Shown here: positions 751 to 58,909 of the stretch, piece by piece
Position numbering within the stretch: the first letter of the stretch is position 1
Layout of the letters: each line of letters opens with the position of its first letter
Origin: a virus
Taxonomy: Duplodnaviria; Caudoviricetes
Virus record (IMG/VR): IMGVR_UViG_3300035152_000033
Coordinates: 15,980-79,979 of that record
Length of the DNA: 64,000 bases
Direction: 5' to 3' (one strand)
The notes under the pieces: model-generated
Seen by the model: the letters and a program-made list of their open reading frames with translations, nothing else
Databases searched by the model: none
What the model was told of the DNA's origin: nothing
Translations under genes and position numbers: made by a program

Positions 751-2265
751 TTACCTCCTTCCCCTAACTCTAACTTTAGCTCTCTTATTTCTTTTCTCAG
801 GAACTACATTACCAAAAGCTAATAACCATGCGTCTCCTCTATCAGGAGACTTACCCAATCGATCAGCTTTCCGTAAATCTTCCTTTGACTCAATTTTTGT
901 CTGACCCTTAGAAGTCATAGTATACTCAGGAGCCGATAATTCTTTTAATCCTTCCGAGGAAATATTCTTAGTAGATATTTCTCTCTTTTGTACTCGTACT
1001 CTAAATTGCCACCATAAATTATCTCTTAAAGTTACAAATCTTAATCTATCCTTTTTTAACTCTTTAGTTTTTAAATCCTTACTAGCCATAGCGACATTAA
1101 CACCAATAATCTCGATATGTTGAGGAAATTCTCCTTCTTCTTGTAGCTCCAACAATCTATCCACAGGACCTGCACCTAAACCAATAACATCTAACTTAAT
1201 TTTACTGACCCTATGAGGACCTAAAAAAGATATCTCCTCTCTTATAGCTCCTACTACAGCCATAGTGGACTTATGATATAACACTCTTTCATATAATGGC
1301 TGTCTGCCTGCCCTAAAAGCTAATACAGACTCATCCGTTCCATATCTGGCTATATCAACTCCAACCTCAATCTCTGAATACATTTCATCTTGAGCAAAAT
1401 ACAAATCCCTACACTCATCTAAATCAGCTATAGGAATAACTTTATCAGTTTGGTCACTACTAGGAAAATCAGCATCAATTTTAATTTTTACTAAAACGGA
1501 CTCTGATCCCCAAGTCTGAAACCTTTCAGCTACCCATTGAGGAGTAACTAAATAAGGTCTGGGCATCTTCTTATCCCCAACTTTTTCTTGCCAGGCCCCA
1601 GTTAAAATATCCTCTCTAGTTATACCAAAATAAACAAAATTAGGTGTGTCAAAAGCTGATATTTTAAATTTAGCATATAAATCATTAGTAAAAGATTCTC
1701 TAAATCTTCCCTCAGCTCTAGTTGGATTTCCTACAAGTAACATGTGAGCATTACCAGAAGACATTAATCCTTCTAAAGCATCAAATATAGGGTCGGGAAC
1801 TCCACTAGCTTCATCAACAATAATTAAAATATTATCAGAATGATATCCCGTAACCCTCTCTATATTAAACTCAGAAGTAGCAAACCCTTCGGCATACCAC
1901 CCAGGCTTTAATTCTAATCTAGTTTTTAAAGGGTCTCCCCCTAAAGGCCTAATCTTACTGCCTCTTCCATGAGCTTCTCTTATCTCTGACCATAATAAAG
2001 AATAAACTTGTCTCCCAGTAGGAGCCGTAGTTATAACTTTAGAAGGTTTATGCGTATATAAGAACCATAATACAGTATTTCCAGATAAAAAAGTTTTACC
2101 AGGACCATGACAGGCCCTAACAGTAGTATATCTTTTGTCTTTAACAGAATTTATTATATCAATTTGTTTCTGCCACAACTCAGCCCCAAGCATATTCTTA
2201 ATAAACCAATCAGGCTTTTCCTTGCTTTTACTCAACAACTGCCTTGCGGTATCTTTACTAATCAT
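751..2265 (-). CDS. terL: Terminase large subunit
   Basis: Walker A-like ACHGPGKT, Walker B IIVDEA, coupling motif GNPT, RNase H-like nuclease motifs GVDIARYGTD and SPDRGDA. Confidence 0.93.
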   Translation of the reverse strand: MISKDTARQLLSKSKEKPDWFIKNMLGAELWQKQIDIINSVKDKRYTTVRACHGPGKTFLSGNTVLWFLYTHKPSKVITTAPTGRQVYSLLWSEIREAHGRGSKIRPLGGDPLKTRLELKPGWYAEGFATSEFNIERVTGYHSDNILIIVDEASGVPDPIFDALEGLMSSGNAHMLLVGNPTRAEGRFRESFTNDLYAKFKISAFDTPNFVYFGITREDILTGAWQEKVGDKKMPRPYLVTPQWVAERFQTWGSESVLVKIKIDADFPSSDQTDKVIPIADLDECRDLYFAQDEMYSEIEVGVDIARYGTDESVLAFRAGRQPLYERVLYHKSTMAVVGAIREEISFLGPHRVSKIKLDVIGLGAGPVDRLLELQEEGEFPQHIEIIGVNVAMASKDLKTKELKKDRLRFVTLRDNLWWQFRVRVQKREISTKNISSEGLKELSAPEYTMTSKGQTKIESKEDLRKADRLGKSPDRGDAWLLAFGNVVPEKRNKRAKVRVRGRR

Positions 2266-6234: not shown

Positions 6235-6969
6235 CTACTTTTCTATAAGTTTTACACTGACACTATCTAACTGTAAAGTAGCCCCAGCATTCAATTTAGC
6301 ATTCTTATAATCACTGATATAAAAGCCATCTGAAACAGTACTCATTATTAAATTAACACTATCACCCCAACCATTATCATGAGCTATAACATTACCACTA
6401 CCAGACGAACAAACTATATCATAAGTACCAGCTTTAATATCAGACCCAACAACATAACGCCCAGGACCAAAATTATAAGTCTTTTTAACTACAGGTTTCT
6501 TAGTAGGTTTAGGAGTAGGTTTCTTAGTGGGCTTCTCAGTAGGTTTAGGAGTAGCTTTTTCAGTTTCCTTAACAACTACCTTTTTATCATCTTTCTCAGC
6601 CTCTAATTTATCCACTTTAGATTGATACTCAGAAACTTTATTCTCATAATCATTAAACTTATCCTCTAACTTTTCATACTTCCCTAAAGTTTCTTTATAC
6701 TTTGCTTTATAATCAGTACCTAAACCTAGCAAATCACCAAAACTAAAATTGGCAAGCAATAAAGCAGCCAAACCAACTAAACAAGCTTTCCACCATACAA
6801 ATTTAAGTCTTTTATTGCTTTCAAGCCCTACAAGTAACCAAGGTACCACACTTAAAATCAAAGCATCCACCCAAAAATTACCCGTTACATTAAACAATCT
6901 AGTCTCCGCTACCTGCAACTCAGCAAAAGTCTCTACATTTTCATCATATCTATTATTTCTATCATCCAT
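6235..6969 (-). CDS. Membrane protein with coiled coil, Pro/Thr/Lys linker and extracellular beta domain
   Basis: Two TM segments, KPTEKPTKKPTPKPTKKP linker, GPGRYVVGSDIKAGTY motif. Confidence 0.65.
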   Translation of the reverse strand: MDDRNNRYDENVETFAELQVAETRLFNVTGNFWVDALILSVVPWLLVGLESNKRLKFVWWKACLVGLAALLLANFSFGDLLGLGTDYKAKYKETLGKYEKLEDKFNDYENKVSEYQSKVDKLEAEKDDKKVVVKETEKATPKPTEKPTKKPTPKPTKKPVVKKTYNFGPGRYVVGSDIKAGTYDIVCSSGSGNVIAHDNGWGDSVNLIMSTVSDGFYISDYKNAKLNAGATLQLDSVSVKLIEK

Positions 6970-7000
6970 TTTAATCTTCCTCCTAAAAGTTTATTTAATA

Positions 7001-7033
7001 CTTATACCTAAAAAATAATGAAATATTAAGTTA
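7001..7033 (-). promoter_or_regulatory. Class II promoter (one of 14)
   Basis: TAACT-N22-TATAAG with GG before the -10. Confidence 0.55.
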
Positions 7034-7094
7034 TCATTTTAAATTTTCCTCAAATAAAAATAACAGGATATAAAAATACACCCTGTCACTCTCC

Positions 7095-7301
7095 TTATTT
7101 CTTTATCTGAATAACTTCCGACACTCTTTGATATTTTTTACGCAAAATAAAACCACTTATACTAATTAATATAATGGATAAACATATTAATACAGGTATA
7201 AATGGATTACCGTTATGATGTATTGTTTTATACACATCTCTTAAAAATATTATAAGTATAAGACCTAAAACAACACTTAGTATAATACTTAATACTTTCA
7301 T
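7095..7301 (-). CDS. Small two-TM membrane protein
   Basis: 68 aa, two hydrophobic helices, basic C-terminus, RBS AGGAGG. Confidence 0.6.
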   Translation of the reverse strand: MKVLSIILSVVLGLILIIFLRDVYKTIHHNGNPFIPVLICLSIILISISGFILRKKYQRVSEVIQIKK

Positions 7302-7321
7302 AATAACCTCCTAAAGGCATA

Positions 7322-7435
7322 ATAATGGAGCCAATAGATGAGGATATTGGCCCCTATAAGATAAATTAATTTAAAGGAGAATCACTTTTCCAATGACTCT
7401 TCACCTCATCACTTAAGTACTTTATTTTGAATCTG
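7322..7435 (-). ncRNA. Candidate antisense sRNA or leader, complementary to class I leaders and RBS
   Basis: Driven by the promoter at 7442-7470. Contains TCTCCTTTAAATTAATTTATCTTAT between two hairpins; this is the reverse complement of ATAAGATAAA...AAGGAGA. Confidence 0.6.
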
Positions 7436-7441
7436 TGCCTA

Positions 7442-7470
7442 ATTATATCCCTAAATGATACATATGTCAA
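7442..7470 (-). promoter_or_regulatory. Class I promoter
   Basis: TTGACATATGTATCATTTAGGGA-TATAAT: consensus hexamers, 17-bp spacer. Confidence 0.85.
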
Positions 7471-7805
7471 GGCTTAAGTTTAAACCTTTCAGACAAAGGA
7501 TCATACTCAGCACCAGAAGTAATGCTCATAACAATAATCTTTTTATAAGACAAACCTTTTTTAACTAACCATTTAACATCAGGCCCATAAACATTACCAT
7601 AAATACTCTCATTTTTAGGCTTAACTCTTTCCAACAAAGCAACAGATTTTATAGCCTGATATTTTTTACAGACTTTTCTTTTAGTTTTCCATAAAATAAT
7701 AGCCATGTCTTTCTCACTAAACTTAAAATCAAGTAACAACTTATACAAATCATCAATCTTTTCTATCTCAGCTTCCCTTTCTTCTACGGCCTTATTAATT
7801 TTCAA
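7467..7805 (-). CDS. Hypothetical protein
   Basis: 112-aa ORF with RBS GGAGGAG, downstream of dnaX. Confidence 0.55.
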   Translation of the reverse strand: MKINKAVEEREAEIEKIDDLYKLLLDFKFSEKDMAIILWKTKRKVCKKYQAIKSVALLERVKPKNESIYGNVYGPDVKWLVKKGLSYKKIIVMSITSGAEYDPLSERFKLKP

Positions 7806-7816
7806 AATAACTCCTC

Positions 7817-8947
7817 CTAACTATTAAAAAAGCTTGCTACAGCTTCTTTACTTGTGAAATGGGCTGGCTTTTCTACTTCTCCTACCATTGGATTAAGCAC
7901 ATAACTTAATCTCAAATAAACAATACCTAAAGATACTTTATCCCCAGACACTTTTACTTTTCCTTTATACTCCCACAATACATTTAACATATTAAAGATA
8001 AGTTTAGGAGTTAATTTCTCTGCCAACTCCATATAATTCTCATAACCTTTAACATTATTCTTAGCTAATAAAATATTTTTTAAAGTCTCCATAAAAGAAT
8101 CTACAATCCTCACAACAGAATTAGCCCGATCAAATACCTCCTCTAATAAAACCATACCCTCTGCCAACTTATTATTAATTAAACAATTAATAAGTTCAAA
8201 ATAAAAAGATTTATCTATGATTCCAAAGAAATCTTTAAACACCTGAGATGTTATATGATTAGAAATATATTGAAGTTGATCTAGACACATAACAGCGTCA
8301 CGCATACCACCCTTAACATAATTGGCTATAGCCTGAGCAGCATCCTTATCTAACTTAATCTTCTCAGCTTCCGCAATAAAAAAGAGCCTATCCATAATAT
8401 CCTTAACAGAAATCCTCTTATATTCAAAAACTAATAATCTTGATTTAATAGTCTCAGGTACTTTATGGCTCTCAGTAGTAGCCATAATAAATATAGTATT
8501 GCTTGGTGGTTCTTCTAATATCTTTAATAATGCCTGGAATCCCTGAATAGAACACCCATGCACTTCATCTATTACTATAACTCTATACTCTCCATTATGA
8601 GAAGTCATAGCCACATCTTTTAACTTTCTGATATCATCCACTAAACCATTAGAAGCGGCATCTATTTCCAAAACTGAGGTATCATTAGCCTTAGAAATAG
8701 CTAAACAAGAAGGACATTTCCCACAACTTTTAACACCTTTTCGATCAGAGCAATTTAAAACCCTTGCTATTATTCTTGCACTAGTAGTCTTTCCTATTCC
8801 TCGAGACCCACAGAACAATAAACCTGCAGGTAAAGCAGCCCCCTTAAAATGTTTATCTAAAATAGCTTCCAAAATCTTAATAATATGTTCTTGACCAACC
8901 ATATCAGATAAATTTAAAGGCCTATATTTTAATGCCAACTTTTCCAT
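7817..8947 (-). CDS. dnaX: DNA polymerase III clamp-loader gamma/tau subunit
   Basis: LALKYRP, GSRGIGKTT, zinc module LNC...CGKCPSC, EIDAAS, IDEVH, ALLKILEEPP, GGMRDA. Confidence 0.95.
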   Translation of the reverse strand: MEKLALKYRPLNLSDMVGQEHIIKILEAILDKHFKGAALPAGLLFCGSRGIGKTTSARIIARVLNCSDRKGVKSCGKCPSCLAISKANDTSVLEIDAASNGLVDDIRKLKDVAMTSHNGEYRVIVIDEVHGCSIQGFQALLKILEEPPSNTIFIMATTESHKVPETIKSRLLVFEYKRISVKDIMDRLFFIAEAEKIKLDKDAAQAIANYVKGGMRDAVMCLDQLQYISNHITSQVFKDFFGIIDKSFYFELINCLINNKLAEGMVLLEEVFDRANSVVRIVDSFMETLKNILLAKNNVKGYENYMELAEKLTPKLIFNMLNVLWEYKGKVKVSGDKVSLGIVYLRLSYVLNPMVGEVEKPAHFTSKEAVASFFNS

Positions 8948-12775: not shown

Positions 12776-12799
12776 AAATAATATAACCTCCTACAAAGT

Positions 12800-12862
12800 A
12801 AAAGCCCCTGATAAATAGATTGGCAATATCAGAGACTTTTTATTAAATTAATGAATACCACT
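12800..12862 (-). promoter_or_regulatory. Attenuator-like leader of the radical SAM gene
   Basis: TTTACG-N17-TACAAT at 12869-12897, then hairpin AAAGTCTCTGATA / 13-nt loop / TATCAGGGGCTTT plus U-tract, then the RBS. Confidence 0.55.
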
Positions 12863-13285
12863 TTCTTTATTGTACCGTAAATTTATTGTATCGTAAAATC
12901 AGTTAAAAATCAATCTCATTTTTCCAACAAGGTAAAGCAGACACATGGGCATCCCATGCCACACCAAAACACACCTTTTCTTTTAAACATGTTACGGTAT
13001 ACTCAATCTTACCACTTAAGATTGAATGTGCTTTACTAAAATCCTTAGCATAATCACAATACCAGCATTTAAACATTTTAGGATTTGCATCCGTATAACT
13101 TTTATTATTCATAGCAATCTTATGAGCTTTATTTAGCTTAGAAGAATACTCTAAAATATCTTTCTTATTAATATCCTTAGAAGATTCAATATTAACTATC
13201 TTTCTCTTATCATAGAGCTTACACCAATCAATATACTCTAATAATGTAAGCCCTCTTTCAATATCTTTTTCCTTTAATAAATTAA

Positions 13286-13678
13286 TCATGATAAAACCTT
13301 CAATCTGGTATAATCATAATCTAAAAGATTACAAAACTCTTTCAATGAAGAATCTGACAGTCTATGAGTACCAGACTCCACCTTAGCATAAGTACTAAGA
13401 GACATACCTAAAGCTTTAGCAATCTCTCTTTGTGTCCATCCTCGCCAAACTCTTACTTTACGTAAAGTACTAAAGCTCTTGTCGCTCACTGCACTTAACC
13501 TCTTATAAGGTTTATATACTTTTTTAGTCTTTCTTTTTTCATAAGCATCCGTAGCCCATTCTAAAAAAACGTCAACCACTTCATCCACACTTAAAGGGTT
13601 CTCCTCAGCCACCTTTTTTAATTTTTCTAAAGTGGAATTTTTTATTAAAAATCTACAAGTACTACGCAAAACTTTCAC
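13286..13678 (-). CDS. XRE-family HTH transcriptional regulator
   Basis: LRKVRVWRGWTQREIAKALGMSLSTYAKVESG; the N-terminus looks ribbon-helix-helix-like. Confidence 0.85.
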   Translation of the reverse strand: MKVLRSTCRFLIKNSTLEKLKKVAEENPLSVDEVVDVFLEWATDAYEKRKTKKVYKPYKRLSAVSDKSFSTLRKVRVWRGWTQREIAKALGMSLSTYAKVESGTHRLSDSSLKEFCNLLDYDYTRLKVLS

Positions 13679-13900
13679 TCCTTTCTATTATCCTATTTAG
13701 GACATATAAATTTTTACTACTTTTATAGTCAGTCTATACATATAAAGCCAGATAAAGAAAATACCTAAAATCAACCAACGTCTACAGCTATAATCTCTCT
13801 CATATATAACATATATCATATGAGACCCTGCTATTAAAAGAACCCACAAACTATAAAACATTCCAATTAAAGTCCAAACCAAATATAAACACCTCCTAAA

Positions 13901-13933
13901 ATTATACCTACAAAAAACCAAAAAAGCATGTAC
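13901..13933 (-). promoter_or_regulatory. Class II promoter
   Basis: GTACA-N22-TATAAT. Confidence 0.7.
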
Positions 13934-14002
13934 ACATAAAAATAAAATAAGCCCCTGAAAAAGGAGCTTACTTCTTAAAAGGCATAATATGTAGTAAATT
14001 AC

Positions 14003-14244: not shown

Positions 14245-15228
14245 CTAAAATAAAGCATAGGTATTCGCCAAATCAATGATCACACTATTATTATCCCTTA
14301 CAATAGCAGACTCATTTAATAAAAATAATTTCTTTATCCATTCAATAGACTGCTCAAAGTATTTAATATCTTTCTCTATACCTATAAAAAATCTCTTAGT
14401 ATTTGCACAAGCTATTCCAGTACCACCAGACCCAAAACAAAAATCTAAAACAGTATCACCCTCATTACTAAAAGTAGTGATTATATCTTCCAATAATCTT
14501 ATAGGCTTTTGCGTAGGATGTACTTTAGCATAATCCTTTTTATAATAAAACACACTACCCTTAAAATTACCCTTGATATTAAAAGTTTTATTATGTCTGG
14601 CAAATCTATCACATACTTTAGAATAAGGCCAAAAGTTAGGAGCTTTATCAATATGGAATACATTAATAAGCTCCTGATATATATCCTCAGAACATAATTC
14701 AAATTGTAAAGTATCCCACCTTAAAAAATGTTCTGCCTTTCTATGTCCTAAGATATGATTTATTTTAGTCCTATTAACATTTATATAGGACATTAAATAT
14801 TTTACATACAATCTAACAGGGTTATTATGGTTGCTATCATATTTCTTACAAAAAATACTTATATCCTCATGATATTTCACCAAAGCTTTTTTAGCTATTA
14901 AATTATTTGCAAAGTGATCCTTAACCCATACAGCATCATATAAAAAGAATAAATTTTCATGTTTATAACTTCTTAATTGTGAAGTATAAGGCTCCTGGGA
15001 AAACACTATTAAATAGCCCTTAACTCTCAGCAGCTTATTACAATGATTAAAAAATTTGTCCATATCTAACCTATCATCCCAGGACGTATCCTGATTAGAA
15101 TAGCCTTTTAATTCAATATCTTTAATCGTTCCATAAGGAGGGTCCACCAAAATTAAATCTAGCTCCTTATGGATTTTAGTCATCTCTTCAAAACAATCAC
15201 CATTATATAAAAGCATAATTCCTCCCAT
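14245..15228 (-). CDS. DNA N6-adenine/N4-cytosine methyltransferase (beta class)
   Basis: Motif IV DPPY, HPTQKP, SAM motif VLDFCFGSGGTG. Confidence 0.92.
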   Translation of the reverse strand: MGGIMLLYNGDCFEEMTKIHKELDLILVDPPYGTIKDIELKGYSNQDTSWDDRLDMDKFFNHCNKLLRVKGYLIVFSQEPYTSQLRSYKHENLFFLYDAVWVKDHFANNLIAKKALVKYHEDISIFCKKYDSNHNNPVRLYVKYLMSYINVNRTKINHILGHRKAEHFLRWDTLQFELCSEDIYQELINVFHIDKAPNFWPYSKVCDRFARHNKTFNIKGNFKGSVFYYKKDYAKVHPTQKPIRLLEDIITTFSNEGDTVLDFCFGSGGTGIACANTKRFFIGIEKDIKYFEQSIEWIKKLFLLNESAIVRDNNSVIIDLANTYALF

Positions 15229-15230
15229 AA

Positions 15231-15308
15231 ATTAAAGCCCTTTAAAAAATAAAGAGCTTTAAACAAATATATTAAACTACACAGCAACAATAATAATAAA
15301 TAACTTCT
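15231..15308 (-). promoter_or_regulatory. Leader with terminator-like hairpin in front of the methyltransferase
   Basis: TTTACA-N17-TATACT at 15315-15343; hairpin AAAGCTCTTTA...TAAAGGGCTTT just before the RBS. Confidence 0.45.
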
Positions 15309-15346
15309 ATATTGAGTATAGCATAAGGCTATACAGATGTAAACAT

Positions 15347-15409
15347 TAAAATAAGCCCCATACAGAGCTTATTTTAAAGTCAATAACAGTTCCATTATGA
15401 AAAAACTAT
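15347..15409 (-). ncRNA. Candidate sRNA, about 60 nt
   Basis: TTGACT-N17-TATAAT at 15416-15444, no ORF, terminator AAAATAAGCTCT-GTAT-GGGGCTTATTTT. Confidence 0.45.
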
Positions 15410-15657
15410 ACAACTATTATAAAATACCATTTTACTTTAGTCAATCTTTAATATCCCCATGTTCTAAACTCTTAACCATATCCTCATGATCTTCTATAGT
15501 TTTTATACCTTTAAGTATACTTATTATTATTTTGGCTATAAACTTCACTAACCAAATACCAGCCACTACATCCAAAAATATAAGAGAATAAAACACAAAC
15601 ATCAAATAATTATTAACCAACTCATAAATTTCATTTAACCTGCTCATACTTTCACCT

Positions 15658-17604: not shown

Positions 17605-17775
17605 CTACTCTATTATAAATTTTCCCCAATTCTTTACTACAAAGTCGTATAACTCGTTAAAGTTTTCAAACTTGCTATTATCTATCATATAGTTATCAAG
17701 TTCCCATTGAGAGAACTCAATTCCTCTATCCATTAATCTACTTGCAATTATTTTTTTAGCTATAACACTTAACAT
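17605..17775 (-). CDS. Small early protein, 56 aa (not in ORF track)
   Basis: MLSVIAKKIIASRLMDRG...; has its own class I promoter, RBS GAGGAGG and a downstream hairpin. Confidence 0.7.
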   Translation of the reverse strand: MLSVIAKKIIASRLMDRGIEFSQWELDNYMIDNSKFENFNELYDFVVKNWGKFIIE

Positions 17776-17817
17776 CTTAACGTCCTCCTCAAAATTTATT
17801 ATTTATCTTATGTTCTT

Positions 17818-17846
17818 ATTATATAATAAGACTTGACATATGTCAA
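17818..17846 (-). promoter_or_regulatory. Class I promoter with perfect palindrome
   Basis: CTTGACATATGTCAAG, TTGACA-N17-TATAAT, leader ATAAGATAAA. Confidence 0.9.
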
Positions 17847-18124: not shown

Positions 18125-18967
18125 CTAAGAGGCTAATAATGCTTTTCTTCCAGTATAGAATTTTACTACACTAGCTTCTACCTCAGCGGTATACATCAAG
18201 GATTCAAACCATTTATCTTGGTTTGGTCTTTTAGCTACAACTTTTTTAGCCCTAGCCCCTCTTTCCACTAAACCCTGAGTTAGTAGCAACCAGTTCACTA
18301 TTTTTTCAAACTCTACAGTACCACTATGATGACGAAACTCAATAGTACCGTAAACAGCATAACTGGTTACATTTAATTTTCTATATCTAGCTCTATAAGT
18401 GTCAGTAAATACCTCAAGTAAGGCACTAACTGTACTTTTAGAATCGATTAAATCAAATTTTGATTTTAAATTCATGCCTGATAAAGAATAAACATCTGAG
18501 AAGTTTAAGCAATATAGATTAGCATTGCCTTTTCTTGAGCGAGGCATAAAATTATCAATTTCATCCTCAAACTTTAAGTATGCTTTAGTTAGTGTTTTCC
18601 AACTATCTAAAGTATAGTCTACAATCTCATGATGTATATGTAAACCACAAGACTTATTAACAGTGGCTCCTATGGTATCTAATACAGCACATACAGCCTT
18701 TAGCTGATTAACGCCATCTTTACCAGATAACGGTGGCGACACTAATTCGTAGCCTTTAAAATTAACTGTTTTAATTGATTCCTCAGGCTTTATAGAACAG
18801 TCAGTTACAACTTTCCAACAGTTGTTTAATACTTCATGTGTATACCCAGCATATATACAAGGAATACCCTCAGCCATTAAAATATCGGCCACATTTCTGC
18901 CTGTATATTGCTGAGGCACTAACATCTCTATCTCAATACCAAACTTTCTATCAGTTAATTTTTTCAT
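18125..18967 (-). CDS. Putative amidoligase (COOH-NH2 ligase type 2)
   Basis: FGIEIEM, WKVVTDCSI, ELVSPPL, SCGLHIH, RYRKLN, TIEFRHH. Confidence 0.88.
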   Translation of the reverse strand: MKKLTDRKFGIEIEMLVPQQYTGRNVADILMAEGIPCIYAGYTHEVLNNCWKVVTDCSIKPEESIKTVNFKGYELVSPPLSGKDGVNQLKAVCAVLDTIGATVNKSCGLHIHHEIVDYTLDSWKTLTKAYLKFEDEIDNFMPRSRKGNANLYCLNFSDVYSLSGMNLKSKFDLIDSKSTVSALLEVFTDTYRARYRKLNVTSYAVYGTIEFRHHSGTVEFEKIVNWLLLTQGLVERGARAKKVVAKRPNQDKWFESLMYTAEVEASVVKFYTGRKALLAS

Positions 18968-19010
18968 TTTTAAATCCCCCTTAAATTTTTATGATTTATC
19001 TTATGTTTAC

Positions 19011-19083: not shown

Positions 19084-19719
19084 CTAGAGAGAATCAATAT
19101 ACCTTCTTTCCCTATTAAAGATAGGCCATAAATCTTTTTCGGCCTCCTCTATAGTATTACCAAAAGAATAATAATGACAGTCAGCTAAATAATCCCATAC
19201 AGACATTTTCTGAGTTCTTTCCACATCAGCTACCTTTTCAGTAGCTATAAATTCAAAGTTCGGGCTTATAAAGCTTACATATGGTATATGAGACCCTATT
19301 TCCTCCAAATCATTACTAAAGCTATTAAATTCATTAATAAAACCATTGGACATATAGCTGCATACCTCTCCTAAGGTTAAAGGTAATGCCTTATAATTCT
19401 TATCATAAATGACACTTAAACCATCTATAAAATAACCATTATAAAAAGTTTTTTTAAGTTTGTAAATTTCATTATTTATCTTTTTTCTACTTGGCATGAC
19501 ATCCAATAAATCCTGATCCTGCAAACCCAAATAATAATTTTCCACCGAATATTTAAATGTATATTTATTTATAATTAATTCTCTTCCCATAGTCTCCTCC
19601 TTAGTATTATCTACACACTCCATTTCTTGCTCAGAGTCCACTCCATCATCATACTCACAATAACCATTTACATTAAACAAACACGCACCATAAGCGTCAC
19701 AAGGTACATAATCACACAT
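19084..19719 (-). CDS. Early hypothetical protein
   Basis: 211-aa ORF behind a class I promoter; possible second start MGREL with its own RBS. Confidence 0.6.
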   Translation of the reverse strand: MCDYVPCDAYGACLFNVNGYCEYDDGVDSEQEMECVDNTKEETMGRELIINKYTFKYSVENYYLGLQDQDLLDVMPSRKKINNEIYKLKKTFYNGYFIDGLSVIYDKNYKALPLTLGEVCSYMSNGFINEFNSFSNDLEEIGSHIPYVSFISPNFEFIATEKVADVERTQKMSVWDYLADCHYYSFGNTIEEAEKDLWPIFNRERRYIDSL

Positions 19720-19759
19720 AATTGACTCCTCCTAAAAATATAATTTATCTTATGATTTA

Positions 19760-21858: not shown

Positions 21859-22074
21859 TTAAAAAGCGTTTAAATGAGCTTCAAAAGCTGTCTTAGCTTC
21901 CTCCGCAGTACCTCTAAAAATAAAACAGTGATTCATTCTATTTGAAGTTACATAAGCGAAATCATCTTTTTTCTTTAGGGCTTCTACAAAACTAACACAT
22001 AAAGATTTCTTTACTCTTACAGTAGTATGCCCAGTAACATCATCATAGCTAAAACTAACTTTATTCTTCCACAT
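21859..22074 (-). CDS. Early hypothetical protein
   Basis: 71-aa ORF behind a class I promoter. Confidence 0.65.
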   Translation of the reverse strand: MWKNKVSFSYDDVTGHTTVRVKKSLCVSFVEALKKKDDFAYVTSNRMNHCFIFRGTAEEAKTAFEAHLNAF

Positions 22075-22111
22075 ATAAACGCCTCCAAAATTTAATTTAT
22101 CTTACATTCTT

Positions 22112-24134: not shown

Positions 24135-24859
24135 ATCTTTTATATTTAAATGTAATTTTTTTAATTCCTCCAATGACTTATCAGCATAGCTTTTATAATC
24201 ATATATAATGCTGATATATTGTTCACCTAAACTTGCAATTTGATCATTACAATAAGTAAGTTTAACTTGATTATCTTCTATTATTGATATACTAAAAAAT
24301 CATATCTTAACATTTCAATCCTCCAATAAATTTAAAGTATGTCTAACAGCTTCCTTATGGGTAAAAGGTTCTTTTCTTTCTTTTCGATCAGTGACAAAAC
24401 CCATAAACAAACTTTTAAATTTATTTATATCAGTCTTAAATAACCTTTTGCTTCCTCTATAATAAGACTTACCAACTTCTATAGCATAATCTACAGCGGA
24501 CCAGTTAACACCATCTTTAGACTTATACTTTAAAGGTTCCCCTCTGTCTCTTCTTTTCTTATTTCCTCTACTCATAATCATTCCTCCAATAAATATTATT
24601 TATTCATATATCCAACTTGCCAGGCATTAAGCCAAACCAATAAACAGTTATCAACTACAACCATCTTATCAATAGCAGAGGCAGCCACATAAATATCGCC
24701 CTGCAAAGCTGTTTTATTTTTCACCTTCTCAGAATAACAAATAACTAAACCCTTCCCATCTAAGATCACTTTATCATGAGAAGTATATGCCTTACTCTGA
24801 TTACCAAAATAACAAGTTATACTCTTAATATTAGTACTCTCCATAAAAATCTCCTTTCA

Positions 24860-24938
24860 CGCACTAAAGGGCATTCCTTTAGGGAATACCCTTAACGCTG
24901 TTTAATTAATTAATATTGCCAATTATCAATATGATTAT
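24860..24938 (-). ncRNA. Candidate sRNA, about 80 nt
   Basis: Consensus TTGACA-N17-TATAAT at 24945-24973, no RBS-led ORF, long 3' hairpin AAGGGTATTCC/GGAATGCCCTT. Confidence 0.5.
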
Positions 24939-25308
24939 ACACATATTATATAAACAGGTACTACACTTGTCAAGTCTCATCTACCCAATATGAACATATC
25001 ACATTAGCATCAGCTAACTTACCCAAAATTCTTTTATATTTAAACACACTAATCTGATGTTTAAAATACGTATCGTATAAACTCTGAGTATTATGAAACA
25101 TATAATTTTCTATTATCAGCATTTTAATAAAATAATACTTGAGATACACCCAGATAACAAACCCTAGACTCAGGGCCACAGAACAAAACCCAATAAGTAG
25201 AATTAATTTAACAATTTTAATCATCTCCTCACACCAAAAAAGATTATACCCCAGACAGTATAATCTTTAACAAATTTAGAAGGCTTTTTAGTTCTTCCCC
25301 TCATAACC

Positions 25309-25341
25309 ATTATACCTTAAAAACTGAAAGATAACAAGTTA
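25309..25341 (-). promoter_or_regulatory. Class II promoter followed about 40 nt later by a terminator hairpin
   Basis: TAACT-N22-TATAAT; hairpin AAAGATTATAC/GTATAATCTTT at about 25239-25268. Confidence 0.55.
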
Positions 25342-29350: not shown

Positions 29351-29662
29351 TTAAATCAAACCTGACCAATTATTATAAGTTCTACCATTATCATTGGCAA
29401 ATAATATATAACAGTTTAACTCATTATCCCATATAAATTTAGAATTAAAGTAACCCTGCCCAGTCTTTAAAGTGCCAGTTATACATTTAAAGTCTGGTAT
29501 CTTTTTAGTTACCTTATATCTAGCCTCTAGATAATCCACCAGATCATAAACATCATCTAAAAAGATACCTCTAGATAAATTTTGAATCCTCTTATCATCA
29601 GCAAAAAACTTTCTCTCAACTCTATTCTTACACACCATTACTTTTAGTTCTTTCATTCCCAT
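29351..29662 (-). CDS. Early hypothetical protein
   Basis: ORF behind a class I promoter. Confidence 0.6.
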   Translation of the reverse strand: MGMKELKVMVCKNRVERKFFADDKRIQNLSRGIFLDDVYDLVDYLEARYKVTKKIPDFKCITGTLKTGQGYFNSKFIWDNELNCYILFANDNGRTYNNWSGLI

Positions 29663-29692
29663 TCCCTCCTAAAAATTTTATCTTATGATTTA

Positions 29693-30565: not shown

Positions 30566-31117
30566 TTAAAAGCACTCCACTACAAAATGTAAATGGTTTT
30601 CCTCATAAAAGGCCCATATATTACATATAGATTCTTTAGAATACACCAACATATAAGCACCATACCCACCCTCTATAGGACGAGACAAGTAAATTCGTTC
30701 TGTATGTGTCTGTTGAAAAATTTCATATAATTCTTGATGGATAACATAAATTTTACTATGTTCGGGTTTCGTAGATGGAATTTTACTAGTTTGCAAATCT
30801 TTCAGCAAATCCTTTAATTGATAAAGGGTCGAAAATGTTCCACCTAAAACCTTACTATTTCTTTTGGCCTCTTCTCTCTGCATTTCAAAAGACACTCTAT
30901 TATTATTAAAATAAATCACATCTGCCTCAGTAATATGCAACTCTCTAGCTATATCCTCAACCTGTTTACCTCTGGCTTTATAAATTCTAGCTAGAGAAGC
31001 CTTAGAAGCTTTAAATTTAATTAATTCTTTAATCATAGCCATTTCAGCTCTATTATGAAGACCTTCCAATCTTCCTAACTCTTCTAACTCATCTAACAAA
31101 TCTTTATAATTTTTCAT
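30566..31117 (-). CDS. Early protein with HTH-like segment
   Basis: RGKQVEDIARELHITEADV; behind a class I promoter. Confidence 0.6.
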   Translation of the reverse strand: MKNYKDLLDELEELGRLEGLHNRAEMAMIKELIKFKASKASLARIYKARGKQVEDIARELHITEADVIYFNNNRVSFEMQREEAKRNSKVLGGTFSTLYQLKDLLKDLQTSKIPSTKPEHSKIYVIHQELYEIFQQTHTERIYLSRPIEGGYGAYMLVYSKESICNIWAFYEENHLHFVVECF

Positions 31118-31154
31118 ATAAATCTCTCCTTTAAAATTTTTATCTTATGATTAT

Positions 31155-36864: not shown

Positions 36865-37176
36865 CTAACCTATACTAAGGAAATTATTATAAGCTATCAA
36901 ATCAGCTCTAATCGCTTTTAAAGCCTTTAAGTTAGCTTTAAATTTATCCACCATATCAGATAAAGTGCCTTCATCCAATAAGGCTAATTCATGCAGATTA
37001 ATCCATGAATGATACATAAATAGATCAGCATATTTATATTTAGTTTTTAAAGAATCATAAAAACGATTCTTATTTAATCTATTGCCTCTGAGTCTACTAA
37101 TAGCATTCTCAGTATTGAGACAATTTTTAGCTAACAATGATAATTCCATACTAAGCTCTAAATGTAATTTATTCAT
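36865..37176 (-). CDS. Early hypothetical protein
   Basis: 103-aa ORF behind a class I promoter. Confidence 0.65.
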   Translation of the reverse strand: MNKLHLELSMELSLLAKNCLNTENAISRLRGNRLNKNRFYDSLKTKYKYADLFMYHSWINLHELALLDEGTLSDMVDKFKANLKALKAIRADLIAYNNFLSIG

Positions 37177-37215
37177 TTAATCATCCTCCAAAAATTAATT
37201 TTATCTTATGTATCT

Positions 37216-39720: not shown

Positions 39721-40599
39721 TCATAATTTAATTCTCCCATCTTCCACAGGTCTATCAATAGGCTTTTCCGCTTCTTTAGCAGCAGGGCAAAAAGCCTTTA
39801 CGGGGCATTGATAGCAATTAGTTTTATCATAATTCAAAAGCCATTTACCAGTATGAAGAGAGCTGCCTATTACCCCTATAGCTTTTTTAACTCTTTCATA
39901 CAACTTTTTAAAATCCTCACTTTTAAAAGACAAAGTTACTACCTTATCTTTTCTTAAAGGTACTATAAAACCACATTTAGTAACTTGCCATCCTGCCAAA
40001 GTTCCCATCATTGTATAATAACAAATTTGGTCCTCATCCATAAATCTGGCTGAACTGGTAACTTTAAGATCATATACCACCTTGTCATCTTCATCATACA
40101 AATCTAAAACACCAGTTAAGAAAACATTTTTATAAGCCTTTAATTTTATTCTCCATTTAGTTTCATTTCGCAAGTTCTTTTCAGTAAAACCAAAATCTAT
40201 GAAAACATCTTCTATAGCCTGAGCATTAACTACAGACTTCTCTCGCATATTATTAATATCCTGAGCATTTAAAGGGATAACATTATGCTTTTTTAAATAC
40301 AAATCAAATAGCTTTTTAGCTATAGACTGCATATAACCTATAATTAAATTACCATCTTCATCTCTACCATTAGCTAACCATTCCTCAAGACAAGAATGGC
40401 CTACACTACCAAGACAAAAATTTCTCTCATTAAATTCTTTGGGCTTCCAGTACATTATATTTTGCATAAAATATCTGCCTGGACAATATTCCAAAGACTT
40501 AAAAGAACTATAAGACAACTTTAAAGGTCTATTATTAAAATAATTTATCTTATAATTATAATCTTTAGAATCTAAATTTTTTACCTCTAAATACACCAA
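39721..40599 (-). CDS. PD-(D/E)XK RecB/Cas4-like exonuclease
   Basis: LSYSSF...YCP, GVLDL...VYDLKV, QICYY, C-terminal CYQCPVKAFC. Confidence 0.85.
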   Translation of the reverse strand: MVYLEVKNLDSKDYNYKINYFNNRPLKLSYSSFKSLEYCPGRYFMQNIMYWKPKEFNERNFCLGSVGHSCLEEWLANGRDEDGNLIIGYMQSIAKKLFDLYLKKHNVIPLNAQDINNMREKSVVNAQAIEDVFIDFGFTEKNLRNETKWRIKLKAYKNVFLTGVLDLYDEDDKVVYDLKVTSSARFMDEDQICYYTMMGTLAGWQVTKCGFIVPLRKDKVVTLSFKSEDFKKLYERVKKAIGVIGSSLHTGKWLLNYDKTNCYQCPVKAFCPAAKEAEKPIDRPVEDGRIKL

Positions 40600-54512: not shown

Positions 54513-54869
54513 CTATATTTTTATTTCTTTATTAGCGATTTTCGCTAATTGATTACTATATTTTAAAAGTTTTACTCTTAAATTAGCTACTTCCATTCTA
54601 GTCAAGCCTCTTTTGCTTATAACTCTCTCAGCTATTTTAGTCATATATGGAGCGTCATAGGCTGAGAATCCAACTCCATTAGACTCGTTAGTATGCTTAT
54701 AAGCTTTCTCGTCGGCTGTTTGCAGTTTATATAAAGCCACAACACCTTTTAAGACTGCATTTGGATTTCTAAGAAGTAAATTTCTTATCATTTCACCTGA
54801 CCATACCTTACTAGTTTGGTCTTTCTTTAAAACCTTAACATCTTCCTTTAATAATGCAAATCTACTCAT
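54513..54869 (-). CDS. Early phage hypothetical protein
   Basis: LYKLQTADEK...NGVGFSAYDA...KYSNQL; has its own class I promoter and terminator. Confidence 0.7.
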   Translation of the reverse strand: MSRFALLKEDVKVLKKDQTSKVWSGEMIRNLLLRNPNAVLKGVVALYKLQTADEKAYKHTNESNGVGFSAYDAPYMTKIAERVISKRGLTRMEVANLRVKLLKYSNQLAKIANKEIKI

Positions 54870-54913
54870 AATCGAATCCTCCCAAAAAATTTAATAATTT
54901 ATCTTATGTTTAT

Positions 54914-58151: not shown

Positions 58152-58844
58152 TTAATAAGTAATTCCTAAGTCGTCTTTTAAAACGACTCTCAATTTATTT
58201 AGCATATAAGACACTCCCGTAGTAGAAATGCCCAAATCTTTAGCCAAAGAACTTAAATTCAAACCTGACTTAGTTTTAAATTCCCTTTGAGTTTTTCCAC
58301 CAGAAAAAACATGCTCCATAATTTTATCAAAGAATAAAGGAAAATTATTCCCTAAAGAAGTTACTTTTCTTTCTTTCAAACTTTCTTTTATATAATCTAC
58401 CAACTCTTTAAACTCTAGTTGGTAATTATCTGCCACAGCTCCCAAACTATCTATAAAGGTTGTGGTATTATCAGAATCGGAGATCAGTTTATTAGTAGAC
58501 AAACCCTCTGCCCAAAAAAGTCTTTTATAAGCATCTCTTTTACCGAGAAGCTTTTTATTAGTCCAACTATATAAAAACGTAGAAAATTTAACTTTTGACA
58601 TTTCACCTGTTTTTTTATTAAGAAACATTTTATCAGGGTCAAACTTATTTAAATAATCCCCCTCAAAAAAATCCGTCATTAATTCTTGTGTGACATCTTC
58701 TATGATGTCATCAGGGAAATATCCCTTATAATAGATATGAGTTCTAAGTTTAGGAAACCATATTTTATAGAAATCCGAATAATCTTTTGGAGCTACACCC
58801 AAAATATTCCTACTACTATTATCCTTATCTAGTCTTATTTTCAT
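58152..58844 (-). CDS. Phage sigma70-family factor
   Basis: Region 2-like EDVTQEL...KFDPDK...KFSTFLYSWTNKKL; region 4 HTH SLAKDLGISTTGVSYMLNKLR. Confidence 0.75.
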   Translation of the reverse strand: MKIRLDKDNSSRNILGVAPKDYSDFYKIWFPKLRTHIYYKGYFPDDIIEDVTQELMTDFFEGDYLNKFDPDKMFLNKKTGEMSKVKFSTFLYSWTNKKLLGKRDAYKRLFWAEGLSTNKLISDSDNTTTFIDSLGAVADNYQLEFKELVDYIKESLKERKVTSLGNNFPLFFDKIMEHVFSGGKTQREFKTKSGLNLSSLAKDLGISTTGVSYMLNKLRVVLKDDLGITY

Positions 58845-58880
58845 TTTTAAAATTCCCCCTTAAATATTTAATATAAACGT

Positions 58881-58909
58881 ATAATACCATAGCCCTATAC
58901 ATATGTCAA
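58881..58909 (-). promoter_or_regulatory. Class I promoter of the sigma gene (no TAAGATAAA leader)
   Basis: TTGACATATGTATAG...TGG-TATTAT. Confidence 0.85.

Follow-up and report, generated by a model that had tools for sequence, protein, structure and literature searches.

Downstream of a class I promoter at 7470 of this phage genome we observed, on the minus strand, two hairpins and between them a 25-nt inverted copy of the leader that is shared by eight early transcription units. This seed is complementary to all eight leaders, its occurrence at this site goes beyond what chance would place there, and it is retained in close relatives. We tentatively propose, at slightly below an even chance, that a short RNA derived from this 5' UTR masks the 5' ends and the Shine-Dalgarno (SD) sequences of the eight early mRNAs. 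A masking RNA is favoured because the inverted copy is too exact and too well placed for chance, and comes without any promoter or coding part. We infer from this arrangement the ends of the transcript, its pairing in vivo and the direction and effect of that pairing; a role as a 'timer' of the early genes, suggested in an earlier reading made from the sequence only, would be pure conjecture.

The window, that is the whole stretch of 64,000 nt that was analysed, corresponds to bases 15980-79979 of a virus record of 79,979 bp (G+C 31%), and its minus strand carries every sizeable ORF. No DNA match to this phage was found in the cultured phage collection, and the best match of its large terminase (TerL) to cultured phages had an identity of 39%. 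The region was present in 24 runs, none of them RNA, from metagenomes of wetland, salt-marsh and sediment. A search of 185,579 species genomes with the promoter-plus-tag pattern gave 12 scattered loci and indicated no host, and no lysogeny genes were noticed in the phage. Small membrane proteins are encoded downstream of the 7470 unit. The coordinates of the unit, of the eight leaders and of the neighbouring genes are collected in Table 1.

Table 1. Positions in the window of the 7470 unit, the target leaders and neighbouring genes
Feature	Position	Strand	Details
Class I sigma-70-type promoter TTGACATATGTATCATTTAGGGATATAAT	7442..7470	-	12/12 consensus positions, 17-nt spacer; TTGACATATGT word as in the 8 leader promoters
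Predicted short RNA, ~115-119 nt	7318..7436	-	predicted start near 7436-7434, from the -10 box; predicted end past the terminator-like hairpin
GAUGAGG	7404..7410	-	exact complement of the hairpin 2 loop word CCUCAUC (7343-7337); 7-bp duplex, -9.3 kcal/mol
Hairpin 1: AGAGUCAUU, loop GGAAA, AGUGAUUCU	7378..7400	-	9 bp including 2 G-U, -8.3 kcal/mol
Anti-leader seed UCUCCUUUAAAUUAAUUUAUCUUAU	7356..7380	-	25 nt; reverse complement of ATAAGATAAA + linker + AAAGGAGA
Terminator-like hairpin 2: GGGGCCAAUA-UCCUCAUC-UAUUGGCUCC	7327..7354	-	10 bp, 8-nt loop, -13.8 kcal/mol; tail AUUAUUAUG at 7326-7318
SD and 68-codon ORF	7095..7312	-	SD AGGAGG (7312-7307), ATG 7301, ORF 7301-7095; two hydrophobic spans (two-TM), basic C-terminus
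Hairpin and U-rich tail 3' of 68-codon ORF	7052..7093	-	fold -20.0 kcal/mol; missing from the terminator-like hairpin scan
Target leader 1, +1 to start codon (56-aa ORF)	17773..17811	-	duplex -20.0 kcal/mol, 25 bp
Target leader 2 (280-aa amidoligase)	18965..19004	-	duplex -21.0 kcal/mol, 26 bp
Target leader 3 (211-aa ORF)	19717..19753	-	duplex -24.9 kcal/mol, 26 bp; cofold rank 1/140
Target leader 4 (71-aa ORF; begins GTAAGATAAA)	22072..22105	-	duplex -19.5 kcal/mol, 23 bp
Target leader 5 (103-aa ORF)	29660..29686	-	duplex -17.6 kcal/mol, 20 bp; cofold rank 40/140
Target leader 6 (183-aa ORF)	31115..31148	-	duplex -22.3 kcal/mol, 21 bp
Target leader 7 (103-aa ORF)	37174..37209	-	duplex -21.1 kcal/mol, 24 bp
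Target leader 8 (118-aa ORF, phrog_21015, itself of unknown function)	54867..54907	-	duplex -21.0 kcal/mol, 26 bp
dnaX	7817-8947	-	upstream of the 7470 unit
112-aa ORF	7467-7805	-	upstream of the 7470 unit; TGA stop overlapped by the -35 box of the 7470 promoter
Large terminase (TerL)	751-2265	-	5 kb further downstream of the 7470 unit

The promoter word TTGACATATGT has 11 copies on the minus strand. Eight of these (first base at 17846, 19039, 19788, 22140, 29721, 31183, 37244 and 54942) are followed by a 17-nt spacer, a -10 box (TATAAT), 6 nt, (A/G)TAAGATAAA, an A/T linker of 7-15 nt, the SD and ATG; the eight class I promoters with a common leader that the sequence-only reading had described were thus found as claimed. 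The copies at 58909, 25936 and 7470 are without the shared leader. If transcription begins, as is usual, 7 nt from the -10 box, the eight early mRNAs would start at the A of AUAAGAUAAA. The tagged genes comprise seven ORFs without a named function and one amidoligase gene (18125-18967; Amidoligase_2, 125 bits). A stretch that matches tag and linker at 19/20 positions, without a class I promoter, lies inside a 292-aa ORF (40535-40554 within 39721-40599) and is also found in the 88.7-kb relative described below (L038). The order of TTGACATATGT, correctly spaced -10 box, (CA)TAAGATAAA, SD and ATG was seen as well in unrelated IMG/VR contigs (L008, L009, L013, L015, L014 and L010), and the same order of elements in contigs of Clostridia / Halanaerobiales MAGs (L080, L079 and L087); the promoter regions of L010 and L080 are near-identical.

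At 7470 the same reading had reported a ninth class I promoter followed by an inverted copy of leader and SD, two hairpins flanking that copy, and a loop, CCTCATC, able to pair with an upstream GATGAGG. All of these are present, the loop having its exact complement at 7410-7404. The fold of 7290-7436 compared with shuffles gave z = -2.76. When the 82 nt upstream were shuffled 20000 times, 190 of the shuffles contained a 7-mer complementary to the loop of hairpin 2; a pseudoknot between GAUGAGG and this loop is possible. Hairpin 2 was the first row of a scan for terminator-like hairpins; its tail AUUAUUAUG is a weak U-tract, and because this tract is interrupted, termination there would probably be partial. 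In the isolated RNA the probability of being unpaired was 0.27-0.98 per base of the seed, which sits between two helices. The minimum-energy fold pairs the seed part 7364-7356 with 7409-7401, and 2 of these 9 pairs are disrupted in the 88.7-kb relative (G001). The linker of the seed (7362-7373) forms a perfect 12-nt palindrome, TAAATTAATTTA, through which one molecule of the RNA could pair weakly with another. Searching 6500-8500 on both strands with all 4227 Rfam families (cmscan, E<=10) returned 10 weak rows at chance level and no known RNA family. The succession of a consensus promoter, a 5' hairpin, a single-stranded seed and a terminator-like hairpin would fit a base-pairing RNA.

The stretch of about 130 nt behind this promoter had been described as ORF-free and as a candidate sRNA. 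The minus-strand RNA continues, however, into a 68-codon ORF, opening at 7301, that had been left out together with its SD; the unit is not an sRNA gene standing by itself but serves as leader to a genuine small gene. The ORF matched no PHROG family, and no Pfam family above the cut-off. The relative with 97% DnaX identity has a 64-codon version with an in-frame 12-nt deletion, and in-frame 12-nt deletions in this ORF were also found in runs X4 and X5; because the relatives retain the ORF with such deletions, we consider it a real gene. The 7470 stretch is therefore also a 5' UTR, since the RNA leads directly into the SD and ATG of this conserved ORF. As the ORF is followed by a hairpin and U-run of its own, the unit is monocistronic and of early type, and its leader measures about 135 nt. 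In having a promoter directly upstream (12/12) and a gene with an SD downstream (AGGAGG and ATG), the arrangement resembles that of short RNAs derived from 5' UTRs.

In phage lambda, a short terminated RNA (PR'-6S RNA-tR') heads the late operon, and read-through under Q antitermination leads into the lysis and packaging genes. A 6S-like late attenuator of this type was rejected for the 7470 unit, which is monocistronic and ends, behind the 68-codon ORF, in a separate hairpin and U-run. The gene that comes next (6969) has a separate upstream region, 99% conserved, and TerL is found only 5 kb further on.

A promoter-like site, a strong hairpin and, directly behind it, the SD of the next gene were also seen at 12776-12897, 15217-15343, 15344-15444, 24845-24973 and 25225-25341, the U-run after the hairpin being clear at 12897, 15343, 15444 and 25341 and not clear at 24973. 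This layout is probably a recurring promoter-proximal attenuator or stabiliser. Its recurrence in the phage would suit another explanation of the 7470 unit, namely an ordinary structured leader or attenuator of the 68-codon gene, in which the inverted copy is a recent, functionless recombination scar of the promoter-leader modules. With 8-11 near-identical promoter modules in the genome, such recombination could occur. A random scar, however, would not predict a 25-nt piece that fills the linker between two helices, and no promoter or coding part of any module accompanies the copy. We regard this explanation as rather unlikely, but as the main rival of the masking RNA.

Whether the inverted copy could have arisen by chance was assessed at the level of the pattern. 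Taken alone, the 9-mer TAAGATAAA is not rare and should turn up about 2 times per strand by chance. When an A/T linker and an SD are required along with it, shuffling predicts 0.005 occurrences per strand per genome (2 matches in 400 dinucleotide shuffles), and the inverted copy at 7356-7380 is the only one on the plus strand. Other intergenic regions often contain exact antisense matches of 13-17 nt, so only the pattern-level shuffle test carries weight. A 12/12 promoter, of the class that also drives the targets, precedes the copy by about 55 nt. Homology to the leader family ends on one side at leader base +1, beside the terminator stem, and on the other side 3 nt inside hairpin 1; from these borders the copy essentially fills the linker between the helices. 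It is too exact and too well placed to be a chance occurrence. Beyond the 25 nt there was no similarity to any leader gene, and no promoter or coding part of a module was found; an extended relic of an inverted gene start was ruled out, the similarity being confined to the 25 nt.

The seed is complementary to 8/8 leaders from mRNA base +1 through the SD, with duplexes of 20-26 bp and -17.6 to -24.9 kcal/mol. As in a trans-acting sRNA, an accessible seed is complementary to the initiation regions of the putative targets. The summed seed-leader duplex energy was -167.4, and 1000 composition-matched shuffled seeds gave a mean of -63.1 and a best value of -114.1, none of them reaching that of the actual seed. 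The sequence-only reading expected the eight leaders to come out on top among the 5' regions of the phage. In a cofold screen that includes internal structure, they ranked 1, 2, 3, 4, 6, 7, 11 and 40 among 140 start regions, rank 40 being that of leader 5 (29662). Two start regions without the leader had duplex scores like those of the leaders (5223 at -21.8 and 39283 at -21.3), and a third, 15879, came near them in the cofold screen at -13.0. The specificity of the seed for the leaders is limited, and the pairing is AU-rich and bulged. Between the anti-SD part of the seed and the SD of the 68-codon gene itself the pairing probability was 0, and forcing the contact costs 11.4 kcal/mol; a purely cis anti-SD role was rejected on these grounds.

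Complementarity as such is silent on direction. The abundant 5' ends of the early mRNAs could bind the leader of the 68-codon gene and set the stability, termination or translation of its mRNA, which would link the membrane protein with early transcription. Leader promoters outnumber the 7470 promoter by eight to one, and the seed is flanked in a real mRNA by the 5' hairpin and the terminator-like hairpin, as an interaction in this direction would have it. Yet no leader carries sequence upstream of +1 with which it could invade the terminator stem, the SD of the gene is 15 nt past the hairpin without predicted contact to the seed, and no obvious mechanism follows. We consider this reversed direction improbable.

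The unit was found in two IMG/VR records, one identical (L001) and the other an 88.7-kb record with terminal repeats (L002/G001) whose DnaX is 97% identical; the relatives compared by sequence are close ones only, about 1-3% different in DnaX. In the 88.7-kb record the stretch 7302-7384, which includes the seed, the terminator hairpin and the SD, has 0 substitutions, although the intergenic mean of 5.0% would predict about 4, and this argues against a functionless scar. The seed carries one 1-nt insertion in the variable linker that leaves the predicted pairing unchanged. The loop of hairpin 1 loses 2 nt and one U-G becomes U-A, with the stem kept; GAUGAGG and the loop of hairpin 2 are unchanged. 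Over its whole length the leader shows no unusual conservation, and its 7 mismatches in 166 nt are in line with intergenic DNA in general (mean of 286 in 5759; flanking coding DNA, 1260 in 15674), as a scar or simple attenuator would have it. Retention of the 25 nt is weak evidence taken alone, because the relatives compared are close, and this too leaves room for a scar. A salt-marsh relative (run X5) differs at 47 places over 901 nt; 40 of these are listed, all of them outside 7287-7456, and the other 7 are unlisted. Over 7308-7504 a more diverged sediment contig (run X4) shows totals of 18 differences and 4 gap letters, and another sediment contig keeps ATAAGATAAATTC.

Covariation of leader and seed, a check suggested in the sequence-only reading, was not seen in the close relatives, where no compensatory change was detected and exchanging the seeds of the two phages (G000 and G001) shifted the mean duplex energy by no more than 0.2 kcal/mol. 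More distant relatives were sought in several ways. A scan of IMG/VR with a DnaX alignment gave 64 loci, and the next relative among them (L090; 49% DnaX identity, 45.5% G+C) has no TTGAC-type promoters and no intergenic unit; it retains the order of dnaX, small genes and a 503-aa ORF with the position and size of the large terminase. The 112-aa protein has relatives at 81-91% (P0005-P0007); scanning metagenomes with the alignment of its family yielded no relative, and with the seed pattern 34 loci, namely the 88.7-kb relative and 33 chance matches. A covariance model of the RNA was run over the window and 48 other loci, 516 kb altogether, and detected no homologue or paralogue.

The word ATAAGATAAA is invariant in 9/9 promoter-led leaders of the 88.7-kb relative, and the linkers vary. 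Its invariance and its place at +1 of eight promoters would also be expected of an operator bound by a protein in either orientation, which at about +75 of the 7470 unit could act as a roadblock, but an operator leaves the linker and SD portion of the copy unexplained. Alternatively, a plus-strand RNA could use AAGGAG for a 7-codon ORF, and a promoter-like site with 9/12 consensus positions does exist at 7297-7326 (+). Sites of this quality occur about as often as chance predicts (113 found, 96 expected), the 7-codon ORF has a long gap of 13 nt between SD and ATG, and the minus strand carries all genes. We hold an action at the DNA level or from the plus strand to be very improbable.

According to the masking mechanism that we favour, a sigma-70-like early promoter of host type would drive the structured 5' leader of a monocistronic unit for a 68-residue, two-TM protein. 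Premature termination of transcription from 7470 would yield a short RNA of about 115 nt, and read-through a longer mRNA, with the seed present in each. The seed would bind the extreme 5' end and the SD of the eight early mRNAs and block the loading of ribosomes, and a double-strand RNase may additionally cut the seed-leader duplex of 20-26 bp. As a net effect, the whole early set would be lowered together. Because the regulator and its eight targets have the same promoter class, repression would need the RNA to accumulate. A bolder form of this proposal is possible, although we are doubtful of it: one 'master' antisense RNA would silence at least eight dispersed units through their 5' tag and SD, as an RNA counterpart of T4 RegA/RegB, and the invariant 10-nt tag at +1 would then exist as the address of that RNA.

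The shut-off of phage early genes is known mainly through proteins, by transcription switches and by RegA and RegB of T4, which silence many early mRNAs via a common feature of the ribosome-binding site. The outcome would be alike here, but the agent is a protein in T4 and would be an RNA in the present phage. The phage antisense RNAs known to us have single-gene targets. Closest in mechanism appear to be the c4 antisense RNA of P1 and P7 and the sar RNA of P22, which, according to a review, are phage sRNAs that pair with the ribosome-binding region of an mRNA and block its translation (PMC12197685). Like them, the 7470 RNA would be a phage-encoded RNA complementary to a ribosome-binding region. 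They act on a single mRNA (ant) in the control of lysogeny, whereas the 7470 seed is predicted from sequence to address eight transcripts via a common 5' tag. The Rfam model of the C4 antisense RNA had no match in 6500-8500 at E<=10.

As for the layout, ONT-cappable-seq of virulent Pseudomonas phages revealed a promoter and a terminator at most 250 nt apart inside 5' UTRs, giving an abundant short RNA and a read-through mRNA; these ncRNA candidates are conserved within a genus, and no targets are reported to have been proposed for them (PMC10914365). The 7470 unit resembles them in layout, with a terminator-like hairpin of weak U-tract at the place of the terminator; its target set is evident from the sequence, while its transcript is predicted only. 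Cluster K mycobacteriophages carry at the starts of many non-structural genes, in one orientation, an asymmetric tag that includes AGGAG (SAS, GGGATAGGAGCCC), and four genomes have a single copy in the opposite orientation, with the choice between an RNA and a protein partner left open by the authors (PMC3203893). The SAS is closest in layout to what we describe and differs in its sequence, in the high-GC host and in the position of the tag, at the ribosome-binding site there and at mRNA base +1 here; the inverted SAS copy is not reported to have been analysed as an RNA. Listeria Rli51 and other bacterial sRNAs derived from 5' UTRs are reported to combine a leader that attenuates its own gene with action in trans (PMC11394854, PMC7815308). 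They are bacterial and without a shared-leader regulon, and the 7470 unit belongs to a phage. A search of literature listings and main-text passages found no description of an antisense RNA against a common early leader.

If the proposal is true, an RNA that addresses a whole regulon by a 5' tag would be a new and compact way of timing a lytic programme, and it would explain the identical 10-nt start of dispersed early genes. It would also open a route to regulons and RNA regulators in metagenomic phage genomes and suggest a portable, programmable off-switch for multiple genes. Since tag and mirror can both be read from the sequence, reporter tests are feasible even for uncultured phages. Should the lone inverted SAS of Cluster K be the same thing, the strategy may be wider, without a description of it having been found.

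A sigma gene lacking the leader had been expected to escape this control. No match to Sigma70_r2 was detected in the whole genome. The leaderless class I promoter at 58909 drives, in the region 58152-58909, a 230-aa protein with only weak C-terminal HTH hits (14.5 bits) and E = 1.1 in a PDB search; this seems to be the putative sigma factor of the sequence-only reading. A weak match to sigma region 4 (13391-13450) was rejected as the HTH of an XRE-type 130-aa protein (13286-13678; HTH_3, 50.3 bits). Two other intergenic stretches differ between the two phages far less than the intergenic mean of 5%. The first, 6970-7094, has 1 mismatch in 122 nt and contains a promoter of 'class II', in the terms of the sequence-only reading, ahead of a 244-aa gene; the second, 13883-14002, has 0 mismatches in 117 nt.
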